A DNA stretch of 55,568 nucleotides from Candidatus Woesearchaeota archaeon (GCA_016932755.1 JAFGCE010000085.1:1-55568), one strand, 5' to 3'. Positions 44,661-55,568 are shown, numbered from the stretch's first letter. Made by a program: numbers and translations. The notes: generated by a model not told the origin, from the sequence alone.

Positions 44661-47243
44661 ATGATAGATAGGAAAATATTCCTGATTTTTGTAGTGTTAT
44701 TTGTAGTTCCAATATTTCTTTCTTCTGAGGCAAACGCCCAGACATATAAGTGCAACCTCCCGCCGCTTTGGGACAAAACCACCACGGGATCAATTAATGT
44801 AGGCGAAATACTAAAAGCAAACATGTTCTTGTGCCCTACAAACCATGAAGCTCCAGGCAAGCCTTCATGCCCTCCGACTTATGACAGCGGTGTTGAGCCA
44901 GCTTTGTTTTTCGGAGGTGACGCTGACTATGCAACACAGGAAGGAACAGATTACGCAGAGTATGGGGCAAGAGAAGCAGGGGTGGCAACAACTGACTGGT
45001 CTATCACATTTGAAACTGAAGGAGTCTGCTACCAAGGCTATGAAGGGCAGTATTATGTATGGTTCCAGGTTGACACAATGGGAACCCTCCCAAGTGAAGC
45101 CCCAACAGACGGCTACTGCTATGGTCCTGCGCACTATGTTGACTGGGACACTGAACAATACTGCACTGAAAACTGCAAAGGGCATTCTGTTGAGTGGGCA
45201 GACGGGCTTGAATGCTGCGGTGATGATGACAATATCTCAGCAACAGGAGGAGATGCGCCTGACTGCCTTAAGTCAAAAGGAAGCGGGCTATGTGTATCAA
45301 CAACAAATGCAGGATGGGAATGGGTAATAAAAGGGCAGCCAGAAGACATCGGAGACATAAAAGACCTTGCCTGCGCAAACATTTCAATTGTTGCCAACAG
45401 CACCCATATAATGAGATGTGCTGCAGGAACAGTGCCAAACCCAGGCTCAACAACCCCCTTTGATTTTACTTATATAGGCAAAGAAGACAAGCTAAATGCT
45501 TATGCATGTTTTATTGATGATGCGGGAAAAGCGCAGATAGCACAGTGCGCAGACGCGCCTATAGGTGATATTTATGGCGGCATAAGAAAAGCTCCGGGAG
45601 AGTCTATACTAAAAAAAATCGGGGATGAAAATGTAACTTATTACTGCACAAGGCACAGGGAATATGGAACTCATGTAACAGAATGGAAATCTGATTTGGA
45701 CAATTTGAACAAAGCAAACAAGGAAGACTGCCAGAATGCAAAGCTCCCGACAGGCGCAGTTGCAGGATACAAATGGACAGGCTCAAAATGCTGTTCAGAG
45801 GCAGACGACAAAAACGAATATTATAATGACAAGGAAGGATATAATGCAACAGACCCTTACCCAGGAGGATGCTGGAACAGCCAGTATATCGGAGAAGGAA
45901 CAAGACCTCCTGGAAGAACAGTATTTGACATAATCAACTATAAAGGAGGGTTTGAAGGATGCAGCCTTCCTGAAACCGACCCGTCTCTTGCTTTAAGAGA
46001 CTCTCACACAGGCGGGCTTCTTGTAAATAACAACCCATACTGCAGGGTGCTTGTCGATGCAACAGGGATAGGAAACAATCTCTTCTGCTCGTACAGCGGA
46101 AACTGGATTTCAACAGATGCTGGCGAAACAGTGGATAAATTATCCCAGGATAAAACAAGCAGGGGATGCTGCGCTCCAGACCAGTGCTGGAACGGAGTTG
46201 AGTGCATAGAAGACCAGTCAACAAAATCAACCCCCGAAACATACGACGGCTACAGATGCATACTGGGAAACTGGACTAATGAGACAATTTTGAAATACAC
46301 TCCTGACGGAAGCGCGTCAGGCTACTGCCCGCTTGAATCACAGTGCCTTGTCAATCCTTCGGAGTTTGCGGATGTAAACTGCATTGGCAACAGGGAATAT
46401 CTTGGGAAAAATTTCTGCGAAGAAGGCCAATGGACATCAAGGGCAAAAATGCTTGCAGTTGCCCTGCTTAGATATGCAAACCTAAAGTCATCAGACGATT
46501 ACACATTATTCTGCGACACATATGAAAACATCCTGAACTTCTACAACTATCAGGTTGGAGGCAATTATGTCCTTAACTACATGGGAGATGTTCACTGCCA
46601 GGGCAAGGCGTGTGTCAACGAGTTTTGCGTCTTGAGATACAAGGACGGAGTTGCATTCGGAACATCGCTGAATGAACCAGTTAACTCATCAAGAAGCTTC
46701 CTGAAATCCCTGGACCAGCAGGCTTCACTTTGCGACAGCGCAAGAGCCAAAGACAACCAGTATCACAGGTGCGGAAGCTCAAACATCTGGTATAATGAAA
46801 ATCAGGGAACTCTGATACAGCTTCCTACAGACGACGCATTCGGCTCTGTCTCATGGCAGGAGGCATTTGTCGCGTTTATAAAAAATCCTTTTGATACAAT
46901 AAAAAACTGGATAGTGCCGAGAACAACAGGGCTTGACTTTTTTGACCAGACAAGGATGTTCACAAAAGTTTATGCAGAGGTTCACGGAGACAAAAAGGTG
47001 TTCGCATTCATGGAAGAGGGGCAGACTGTCTATATCGGAGGATGGCCTGTTTCAGGAATGGACTATGTCGGTCTTGAATACCAGGGAATGGATTTCACTC
47101 CGTGCGACCTGATAAGGCACTATGATTCAACAATAAGCTGTTCAGCTGACCAGACAATTTTTGCGCAGTCAAGAAGACCTGGACAGCCGTCAAACCTTGT
47201 GGATGCATGGCCTGACCTGACAGCAAAACTAAGGGTAAGGTAA
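44661..47243 (+). CDS. secreted Cys-rich large protein
   Basis: Sec-type signal MIDRKIFLIFVVLFVVPIFLSSEANA|Q. 860 aa with many Cys; no named domain. Confidence 0.7.
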   Translation: MIDRKIFLIFVVLFVVPIFLSSEANAQTYKCNLPPLWDKTTTGSINVGEILKANMFLCPTNHEAPGKPSCPPTYDSGVEPALFFGGDADYATQEGTDYAEYGAREAGVATTDWSITFETEGVCYQGYEGQYYVWFQVDTMGTLPSEAPTDGYCYGPAHYVDWDTEQYCTENCKGHSVEWADGLECCGDDDNISATGGDAPDCLKSKGSGLCVSTTNAGWEWVIKGQPEDIGDIKDLACANISIVANSTHIMRCAAGTVPNPGSTTPFDFTYIGKEDKLNAYACFIDDAGKAQIAQCADAPIGDIYGGIRKAPGESILKKIGDENVTYYCTRHREYGTHVTEWKSDLDNLNKANKEDCQNAKLPTGAVAGYKWTGSKCCSEADDKNEYYNDKEGYNATDPYPGGCWNSQYIGEGTRPPGRTVFDIINYKGGFEGCSLPETDPSLALRDSHTGGLLVNNNPYCRVLVDATGIGNNLFCSYSGNWISTDAGETVDKLSQDKTSRGCCAPDQCWNGVECIEDQSTKSTPETYDGYRCILGNWTNETILKYTPDGSASGYCPLESQCLVNPSEFADVNCIGNREYLGKNFCEEGQWTSRAKMLAVALLRYANLKSSDDYTLFCDTYENILNFYNYQVGGNYVLNYMGDVHCQGKACVNEFCVLRYKDGVAFGTSLNEPVNSSRSFLKSLDQQASLCDSARAKDNQYHRCGSSNIWYNENQGTLIQLPTDDAFGSVSWQEAFVAFIKNPFDTIKNWIVPRTTGLDFFDQTRMFTKVYAEVHGDKKVFAFMEEGQTVYIGGWPVSGMDYVGLEYQGMDFTPCDLIRHYDSTISCSADQTIFAQSRRPGQPSNLVDAWPDLTAKLRVR

Positions 47244-47245
47244 GA

Positions 47246-48505
47246 ATGTTCAAAAAGTCGCAAGTCACAGTGTTTATCATAATAGCGATTGTGATTATAG
47301 TTATGTTTGGTTTGGGGTATTATGCAATGATTTCAAGGATAACTGAAAAAGGAGAGGAGCAGCTCTTGAGGCAGCAGATAAGCGCAGAAAAAATAAACCC
47401 CCTGAAGGATTACATTACTTCTTGCTTCAGCCTTGCCTCAGCAGACGGGCTTGAGCTTCTGGGAAAACAGGGAGGGTACATTTACAAAAGCCAGGGAGGG
47501 ATAATAGACGACCCTTTTGAAAGCCAGTCAGGGCAGGAATACATAGAATATGAGCAGACAAAGGTTCATTACGGAATTTATGCGCCAATCTCCAATGTAG
47601 GCATGATATTTTTTGCTCAGACCCCGGAATATCCATGGAGCACGTTCCCGAAAGTCTACAACCCTCTAAATCCAGATGAAATTGTTTATGAGGAAAAATA
47701 TGACGGCTATTACGGAAGGAACAAGCTTCCTCCGTTTGAAAAGCCTAAAGAAGGCTCAATACAGGAGCAGCTTGAGGCATTTACAACAAACAGCACATTA
47801 ACCTGCATAGACTGGACAAATTTCCAGCAGCAGGGGCTTGGCATAAAAACAGAAGAGCCGAATGTTTCTGTTACTTTCACAGCGGCAGATGTTACATTTA
47901 CCCTGAACTGGCCGATAGAAGTCACAGACAGCGGTACAGGCGCTGTCACAGACATTAATGAATTTGCAGTTGTTTATCCTGTAAGACTGAGGAAGATTTA
48001 TGATTTTGCAGCCCAGATAATGGACAATGATGTGGGGGACATAACCTACAGCATAGCAGCCACATCCTTGGACGGGCTTACAACTTCAGCAGTAATCCCG
48101 GATATTTTTGGGATGGACGACCTTATTGTAATACATGATGAAGAGTCAAGGATAATAGACAAGGAATACCAATTCAGGTTTATGAGAAAGAACAGGGCTC
48201 CTGCGCTTTATTATGTTGACAACAATACAGACATGGAAGGACCTGTCTGCGTTGACTCACTTGTTCAGTTTGTAGAGCCGGACAAGCTTAACATCGTTGA
48301 TTCATGCGATGACAACTCATTTGAGCTTCAGCTAAAAGCAATAGACCCTGATGAGGATAAGCTTGAGTTTACTTTTGACAGGCAGCTTCCCTATGAAATA
48401 AAGCCTGCAGACATTTATGTAAGGGCATTCAGGATAAAAATCACTGTCAGCGACGGAGAATACAAGGACTGGCAGGATGTTCAAATACCCACAAAAGAGG
48501 AATAG
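47246..48505 (+). CDS. pilin-like (class III signal) surface protein
   Basis: MFKKSQVTVFIIIAIVIIVMFGLGYYAM N-terminus. C-terminal cadherin/Ig-like segment (NRAPALYYVD...ITVSDGE). 2-nt gap to the upstream gene. Confidence 0.6.
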   Translation: MFKKSQVTVFIIIAIVIIVMFGLGYYAMISRITEKGEEQLLRQQISAEKINPLKDYITSCFSLASADGLELLGKQGGYIYKSQGGIIDDPFESQSGQEYIEYEQTKVHYGIYAPISNVGMIFFAQTPEYPWSTFPKVYNPLNPDEIVYEEKYDGYYGRNKLPPFEKPKEGSIQEQLEAFTTNSTLTCIDWTNFQQQGLGIKTEEPNVSVTFTAADVTFTLNWPIEVTDSGTGAVTDINEFAVVYPVRLRKIYDFAAQIMDNDVGDITYSIAATSLDGLTTSAVIPDIFGMDDLIVIHDEESRIIDKEYQFRFMRKNRAPALYYVDNNTDMEGPVCVDSLVQFVEPDKLNIVDSCDDNSFELQLKAIDPDEDKLEFTFDRQLPYEIKPADIYVRAFRIKITVSDGEYKDWQDVQIPTKEE

Positions 48506-55538: not shown

Positions 55539-55547
55539 ACTGCCAAA

Positions 55548-55568
55548 ATGAAAAGAAAAGCGCAAATA
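55548..55568 (+). CDS. start of another pilin-like ORF (3'-truncated by the window)
   Basis: ATG at 55548 encodes MKRKAQI, the same K-A-Q start as 54011. Confidence 0.3.

Follow-up and report, generated by a model that had tools for sequence, protein, structure and literature searches.

Giant Cys-rich proteins and a series of pilin-like proteins encoded by a conserved Woesearchaeota gene cluster that may specify a type-IV-filament-like surface apparatus

What might be built by an archaeal operon that encodes giant Cys-rich exported proteins side by side with a succession of proteins bearing prepilin-like N-termini? This question is raised by nucleotides (nt) 44661 to 55568 of a 55,568-nt contig (JAFGCE010000085.1, called C30 herein) from a Candidatus Woesearchaeota archaeon (GCA_016932755.1). 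The entire contig was analyzed and is referred to as the window; the genome to which it belongs (G000) is 89.5% complete and comprises 927 kb in 87 contigs. From the window alone, it had originally been suggested that this region is an operon that could specify a surface apparatus, to which a second operon at 11.4 to 17.9 kb and a peptidase gene at position 30367 might also contribute. Our analysis leads us to favor, with modest confidence, the reading that the operon carries the structural and adhesive genes of a lineage-specific, undescribed type-IV-filament-like surface apparatus of Woesearchaeota.

Results

An operon for exported proteins continues beyond the window

The window ends with six co-directional genes on the + strand (g1 to g6), which are separated by 2, 1, −4 (an ATGA overlap), 7, and 9 nt. 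The open reading frames (ORFs) and their junctions, including 48505/48507 and the ATGA at 54011 to 54014, are as originally predicted. Likewise, the first product indeed has a Sec-like leader and is Cys-rich (40 Cys residues), and the prepilin-like starts foreseen for a 419-amino acid (aa) protein and three smaller proteins each consist of a basic leader, a [KR]-[GAS] junction, and a hydrophobic stretch. The genes are as follows, wherein slashes mark predicted cleavage sites.

44661..47243, + strand: g1, an 860-aa secreted Cys-rich protein (40 Cys, 4.7%; isoelectric point 4.6) with a Sec-type leader ending ANA/Q and no further transmembrane (TM) segment
47246..48505, + strand: g2, a 419-aa protein with the prepilin-like start MFKKS/QVTVFIII and an Ig/cadherin-like C-terminal part
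48507..54014, + strand: g3, an 1835-aa giant type-I membrane protein with a signal peptide, a GCCC motif, 80 Cys, and one TM segment at approximately 1548-1574
54011..54496, + strand: g4, a 161-aa pilin-like protein (MRKSRKA/QIMGQVFIFIL...) with two conserved Cys
54504..55538, + strand: g5, a 344-aa pilin-like protein (MAKKKA/AVEVQFNWVF...) with an invariant QFNW and with C79, C259, C292, and C340 invariant or nearly so
55548..55568, + strand: g6, the start of a gene for a 162-aa pilin-like protein (MKRKA/QIKMFETIAV...), which is cut at the contig end and continues on contig C7

The g3 start at position 48507 is preferred over that of the longest ORF (48477) because the sequence GAGG lies 6 nt upstream of the former. 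Through the ATGA at their overlap, g3 and g4 are translationally coupled.

C30 closes with the same 13 nt with which C7 opens (AAAAGCGCAAATA; window 55556-55568, equivalent to C7:1-13), and these lie within g6. No contig-end overlaps of 21 nt or longer were present, and the 13-nt overlap of C30 and C7 was located only after synteny had indicated C7. This contig carries the remainder of g6 (162 aa) and then pilin-like genes encoding 159, 320, 234, and 84 aa (g7 to g10), each of which is orthologous to its positional counterpart after g5 in the congeneric genome G001. The order farther downstream in G001 is a gene for a TPR protein, a convergent AbrB/PhoU-like gene, a gene for an Lrp-type regulator, and small pilin-like genes. 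In G000, the TPR and AbrB/PhoU-like genes close C7, and the Lrp-type regulator and small pilin-like genes open a third contig, C1. Because of this synteny with G001, C7 is placed before C1, giving the contig order C30-C7-C1. These joins are new here.

The next genes on C1 are four tandem genes for Cys-rich pilin-like proteins of 84 to 95 aa (MNKKA/QGIS...), followed by genes for a 271-aa protein, a 359-aa Amidase_3 protein, and three further pilin-like proteins. The cluster extends beyond the window and includes about 20 genes in total.

The 359-aa protein (L069:2544-3620 on C1) combines a prepilin-like N-terminus, NKRG/MAEEVLLEIMQALAILLV, with an Amidase_3 (N-acetylmuramoyl-L-alanine amidase) match of 34.6 bits, above the Pfam cut-off. 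In the genome G035, its conservation is limited to the N-terminal part. That an archaeon encodes an enzyme for cutting cell walls is a hint that its partner may be bacterial.

Prepilin-like N-termini recur along the cluster

The products of g2 and of g4 to g10 all begin with a basic leader, a [KR]-[GAS] junction, and approximately 20 hydrophobic residues, which are the features of a class III signal. Genome-wide, a [KR]-[GAS] junction followed by Gln and a hydrophobic stretch is encoded by about 15 of approximately 981 ORF-called genes. Because this junction is so rare and yet is found in g2, g4, and g6 to g9, as well as in g5 with Ala at the +1 position, the run of prepilin-like starts is not attributable to chance.

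The signature is maintained when homologs from other genomes are compared. Nearly all members of the g6 family (24/25) carry [KR][GAS]/Q with a Glu at +6, and in 20 of 25 members of the g7 family, Gln at +1 is combined with Glu at +3. Gln occupies +1 in 17 of the 26 proteins of the g4 family. A [KR][GA] junction is present in 27 of 31 g5 family members, 22 of which have Glu at +3 preceding the invariant QFNW. Orthologs of g2 occupy the equivalent place in the genomes G001, G017, G026, and G035, with N-termini that conform to K-[GAS]-Q-[IVL]-T-x-F; the residue at −1 is Ser in g2 and Gly or Ala in these orthologs. A paralog of g2 resides on contig C42.

Each pilin-like product has an even number of Cys residues. 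BLAST comparisons among the cluster's own products revealed no paralogy, and a shared N-terminal module became visible only by profile comparison, in which the pilin-like families align over their N-terminal 50 to 80 residues and nowhere else (probabilities of 92.9%, 84.5%, and 55%). Such a restriction of similarity to the N-terminal module is also seen among pilins.

Structural models are consistent with this resemblance. The AlphaFold model of g4 (predicted local distance difference test, pLDDT, of 94.3) has a helix spanning residues 5 to 62 and a β head, and that of g5 (pLDDT of 88.4) has a helix spanning residues 6 to 56, a β domain, and a C-terminal helical bundle. Both are confident models that predict a pilin-like lollipop shape, wherein an N-terminal helix of 50 to 58 residues bears a β-rich head.

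The cluster is conserved in order among Woesearchaeota and related lineages

Conservation was assessed among 41 relatives from the same order, 201 genomes sampled from the phylum, and 80 further loci from Woesearchaeota and Nanoarchaeota. Homologs of g5 are present in 38 of the 41 relatives and in 180 of the 201 phylum-sample genomes, mostly as a single copy; at 50% identity, a library of 1.84 billion proteins contains 2162 representatives of the family. The g4 gene is found in 34/41 relatives, in every case beside g5. The order g1 to g9 is collinear in G001, G017, G026, and G035, four genomes from different families. Among the 80 loci, g5-g6-g7 are collinear in 71 to 75, and the remainder are interrupted by contig ends; upstream, g4 is present in 54 and g3 in 58.

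The genomes G017, G026, and G035 carry the C1-type small pilin-like genes directly after g9 in one unbroken block. The G017 cluster includes small tandem pilin-like genes (105 aa) that are orthologous to the small genes of C1.

Many third-party-assembled records with a Woesearchaeota-type cluster (including L070, L073, and L076-L078) are titled ‘uncultured Methanosarcinales archaeon’, a label that is probably wrong.

Giant Cys-rich proteins accompany the pilin-like proteins

The g1 protein has no match in Pfam, NCBIfam, or the sequences of the PDB. Its C-terminal half is present in 27 of the 41 relatives, where it is usually encoded on the contig that carries the g5 homolog, at a distance of approximately 10 kb. 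The g3 protein includes a Cys-rich region, Ig-like (Big_13), fn3-like, and DUF7107-like domains, Cys-knot repeats, and TSP3 calcium-binding repeats; a sequence search of the PDB with g3 was without a match. Its topology, namely a signal peptide, an ectodomain, one TM segment, and a charged tail of 200 to 344 aa, is kept in G001, G017, G026, and G035. The 1835-aa product, originally described as a giant surface protein, spans the membrane and keeps a cytoplasmic tail of conserved kind rather than being a free adhesin.

The g3 tail (window 53150-54014) has about 270 aa, of which approximately 40% are charged. It is rich in Lys and Glu and ends in poly-Lys. Among the same four genomes, the kind of tail is conserved and its sequence is not.

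Motor and peptidase genes are encoded elsewhere in the genome

The window was said to lack an assembly ATPase and a platform gene, and no T2SSE or T2SSF gene was found in it. The genome as a whole encodes two FlaI/TadA-type ATPases (C39 and C31), TadC-type platform genes (C39), and a PibD/FlaK-type peptidase (C55). Both the ATPase and the platform components are present, so the objection that assembly genes might be missing from the entire genome does not hold.

The C39 locus (L067, 6752-13547) comprises a 318-aa pilin-like gene, a 397-aa gene, a 525-aa ATPase gene (T2SSE, 124 bits; FlaI model, 257 bits), two TadC-type (T2SSF) genes, and genes for two pilins that start K-[GA]/QAAMEFLMTYGWAIL with a Glu at +5. 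By analogy of gene arrangement, this layout matches that of the ‘system 1’ filaments (PMC13705601, PMC4858521). The second locus, on C31 (L065:181-4714), consists of a gene for a 763-aa ATPase (TadA model, 115 bits; FlaI, 112 bits) adjoining one for a 725-aa polytopic membrane protein that has no family match. The 725-aa protein is found in 38/41 relatives and exhibits 44 to 76% identity across 13 genomes, which is far above the conservation of any pilin-like gene.

Canonical T2SSF is detected above the cut-off in 28 of the 41 relatives, versus 38 for the cluster. It was not found in G004 (100% complete), in G035 (one closed contig), or in others, all of which carry the cluster, and the C39-type ‘system 1’ locus is missing from many cluster-bearing genomes. 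The C31 pair is therefore the better motor candidate, because it is as widespread as the cluster. The PibD/FlaK-type peptidase is present in 40/41 relatives, and the G000 copy retains both catalytic Asp residues. From this equally wide co-occurrence, it would more probably be the C31 pair and the C55-type peptidase that serve the cluster. This argument from co-occurrence in favor of the C31 pair is new here.

A third T2SSE match, on C87, was rejected as a filament motor since it corresponds to the PINA branch-migration ATPase. In G035, the PibD/FlaK-type match (G035:C1:474776-475624) has one in-frame TGA that could reflect a sequencing error, a pseudogene, or recoding.

Neighboring loci and the start of the operon

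Two other loci of the window had been proposed as parts of the same apparatus, and we exclude both. Proximity of the operon at 11.4 to 17.9 kb to the cluster is confined to G000 and G001, and this operon was set aside because such linkage is absent outside the genus. The peptidase encoded at 30367 is an A24 protein with about nine TM segments (the EppA-like form) and with both catalytic Asp residues kept. It occurs in 14 of the 41 relatives, and in 8 of these 14, no more than 13 kb separate it from the cluster start. In five other genomes (G017, G028, G032, G033, and G036), the 30367-type peptidase gene is always followed by HxsD-like, approximately 470-aa radical-SAM, and small precursor genes. 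We therefore assign this peptidase to the His-Xaa-Ser module and reject it as a dedicated prepilin peptidase of the cluster, a reassignment that is new here.

The His-Xaa-Ser module (window 30367-34543; L162-L165) abuts the cluster start divergently in G017, G028, G032, and G033. It is located within 13 kb of the cluster in G000, G001, G009, and G036.

In the window, this radical-SAM His-Xaa-Ser locus is upstream of g1 on the opposite strand. The region preceding g1 includes two further features that were read directly from the nucleotides.

44608..44615, + strand: candidate archaeal TATA box, TTTATATA, approximately 50 nt upstream of the g1 start
44653..44657, + strand: Shine-Dalgarno-like GAGGT preceding g1

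Together, TTTATATA at 44608-44615 and the GAGGT would be compatible with an archaeal promoter and ribosome-binding site. A sigma-70 promoter scan is uninformative for archaea.

Discussion

A possible filament-like machine

We infer the following pathway of subunit cleavage, assembly, motor use, and cell-cell contact for a type-IV-filament-like apparatus. The products of g2 and g4 to g10 (with g6 continuing on C7 and g7 to g10 encoded wholly there) would be made as prepilins, and the universal PibD/FlaK-type class III signal peptidase of the C55 type would cleave them after [KR]-[GAS]. The hydrophobic N-terminal helices could then move out of the membrane and be built into a short filament or pseudopilus with multiple subunits. 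Within it, the distinct single-copy pilin-like families may each hold a fixed place, like minor pilins, and the products of the four small tandem Cys-rich genes of C1 (84 to 95 aa) are candidate major subunits. Secreted g1 and transmembrane g3 would form the surface that makes contact and connect it to the cell. The apparatus would be powered by a FlaI/TadA-type ATPase with a platform protein, both encoded elsewhere, for which the C31 pair is a better candidate than C39.

A broader version of this proposal is possible, although we advance it only tentatively. The cluster, the C31-type ATPase with its 725-aa partner, and the PibD-type peptidase might together constitute an unclassified type-IV-filament-like machine that belongs to the core gene set of Woesearchaeota and related Nanoarchaeia. 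More than 10 distinct pilin-like subunits and the transmembrane giant would then form a fixed organelle for cell contact and not an ordinary adhesive pilus.

A fixed envelope complex as the main rival

Several findings weigh against a filament. Foldseek searches of the PDB revealed no solved pilin or archaellin that resembles g4 or g5 (best E-values of 0.079 for g5 and 0.17 for g4). The g4 and g5 models have a long N-terminal helix and a β head reminiscent of the pilin fold for which a search had been advised, but no significantly similar solved counterpart; this combination of two confident models with negative fold searches is new here. Family scans used Pfam and NCBIfam for g1 to g5, for the relatives' longer homologs, and for the C1 genes, and Pfam alone for g7 to g9. 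The domains recovered by these scans are limited to Ig-like, TSP3, PKD, and Amidase_3; g2, g4, and g5 match no Pfam or NCBIfam model, and g7 to g9 and the C1 pilin-like genes match no Pfam model. Searches of PDB sequences with g2 and with the g4 and g5 family profiles also yielded no match. From sequence and predicted fold, the resemblance to pilins appears to lie in the N-terminus and overall shape, and the proteins fall into no described pilin family.

The remaining adverse points concern the genomic setting, the giant protein, and the putative motor. Near-universal, single-copy, and collinear conservation is more typical of a housekeeping envelope machine than of an accessory pilus, and the TM anchor and long cytoplasmic tail of g3 suit a fixed envelope complex more than a pilus-borne adhesin. 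Neither ATPase nor platform genes ever adjoin the cluster; they reside on other contigs in G000 and hundreds of kilobases away in the closed genome G026. In addition, the 725-aa protein of C31 bears a weak resemblance to T2SSF. When a profile of 13 orthologs was compared by hhalign with the C39 TadC proteins, its N-terminal half aligned over 214 columns with a probability of 32% (E of 4.8e-4), and its C-terminal half gave a probability of 5% (E of 7e-3). Matches to PF00482 fall below the cut-off in 3 of the 13 orthologs, and weak matches to this family occur at the same places in five genomes.

These observations bring forward the main rival explanation, which we regard as rather doubtful, wherein the pilin-like proteins are anchored by their N-terminal helices, cleaved or not, and form an ATPase-free hetero-oligomer around g3. 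Such a cell-envelope complex could be an S-layer-like or scaffolding structure that these cells cannot do without. It would accommodate the retention of one TM segment and a charged cytoplasmic tail of 200 to 344 aa in g3 orthologs, the coupling of g3 to g4 through ATGA, the near-universal, mostly single-copy, and collinear conservation, the separation from any motor gene, and globular parts that have no relative among solved pilins. For a plain anchor, however, there is no need of an invariant small residue with Gln directly after it, nor of a conserved Glu. Furthermore, the universal class III peptidase and the type IV filament-type ATPase with its membrane partner need substrates, and the cluster holds most of the candidates in the genome. 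Small tandem pilin-like genes, which are typical of major subunits, also lie within the same cluster in G017 (105 aa).

Secretion or uptake functions

It is improbable that the pilin-like proteins instead form a type-II-secretion-like pseudopilus, a piston that would export g1 and other co-encoded Cys-rich proteins. The presence of several pilin-like genes and large secreted proteins in one operon does recall GspG-K sets, and the ATPase/platform pairs derive from the same superfamily. Yet g1 and g3 have ordinary Sec leaders, a single-membrane archaeon has no outer membrane to cross, and 10 to 18 pilin-like genes far exceed the needs of a pseudopilus. To our knowledge, no archaeal type II secretion system has been described.

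Least probable of all is a competence (Com)-type pseudopilus for DNA or nutrient uptake in a host-dependent cell unable to make nucleotides, for although operons with multiple pilin-like genes are typical of Com systems, and the joint presence of pili and competence genes has been reported for ultra-small prokaryotes (PMC9938205), the 89.5%-complete genome yielded no ComEC-type channel (PF03772) and the giant Cys-rich proteins would have no role in such a system.

Comparison with known systems

A type-IV-filament-like apparatus of the kind we favor would share several features with the Epd pilus of Methanococcus maripaludis and the ‘clade 1’ or ‘system 1’ filaments (PMC4858521, PMC13705601). 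These systems have at least five different minor pilin-like proteins, and their small major pilins of about 70 aa occur as several paralogs, comparable with the four 84- to 95-aa genes of C1. They also have Gln at +1 of the predicted cleavage site and, as on C39, two TadC-type platform genes beside the ATPase. Moreover, system-1 pilins are reported to be common in DPANN archaea (PMC4858521, PMC13705601). In contrast, g2 and g4 to g10 have no detectable sequence or fold relation to described pilin families, and the structural genes form one conserved block of approximately 20 genes that includes giant Cys-rich proteins and lies away from the motor. The cluster is also present where canonical TadC is not found, and the 9-TM EppA-like peptidase accompanies the His-Xaa-Ser module rather than pilin genes.

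The same scattering has been reported for the type IV filament genes of DPANN archaea, in which ATPase and platform genes are neighbors and pilin genes lie elsewhere (PMC13705601). Islands of ‘dark matter’ genes with signal peptides have been predicted to encode diverse pilins (Makarova, Wolf and Koonin 2019, PMC6393860, Fig. 2A text), and the present cluster likewise includes unannotated signal-peptide genes with pilin-like products. Unlike the cluster, those islands contain FlaI/TadC genes, and neither a motor-less, collinear, and near-universal cluster nor the giant proteins are described there. Published work deals with the scattering of filament genes in DPANN archaea and with pilins that lack an assignment (PMC13705601, PMC6393860, PMC4858521), and we found no description of the present cluster in it.

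The priming and tip complexes formed by bacterial minor pilins with PilY1 (PMC13190605 for PilY1), as well as the GspH-K pseudopilin tips, similarly combine, in one operon, a gene for a very large protein of the adhesin type with those for a fixed set of different pilin-like proteins, each present as a single copy, and their families have the N-terminal helix alone in common. The Woesearchaeota cluster differs from them in its archaeal class III signals, its many more subunits, and its lack of homology, and also in that its giant g3 is membrane anchored with a cytoplasmic tail.

A precedent for pilin-like proteins that do not form a long pilus comes from archaea, and a match to the NCBIfam BasE model was seen in this analysis. 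In the bindosome (Bas) of Sulfolobus, pilin-like proteins organize surface proteins and are driven by a FlaI-type ATPase. The cluster resembles this system in that pilin-like proteins may arrange surface proteins. It differs in that the sugar-binding proteins of the bindosome themselves have class III signals, in that no giant Cys-rich proteins are involved there, and in the families and taxa concerned.

Implications for Woesearchaeota

Few uncultured archaea are as widespread as Woesearchaeota, which are thought to rely on other cells. A block of approximately 20 genes for exported proteins that is kept in order in about 90% of the sampled genomes, and that is unseen by Pfam and NCBIfam, is the best candidate for a contact apparatus in these organisms, and we infer that it may serve in contact with a host. 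In enrichment cultures, antibodies, proteomics, and tomography could be aimed directly at its proteins. For most DPANN motors, no pilins could be assigned in the most recent survey of type IV filaments in archaea, a gap that the cluster would fill. The cluster also suggests that the conserved motor is a second, divergent ATPase/platform pair.

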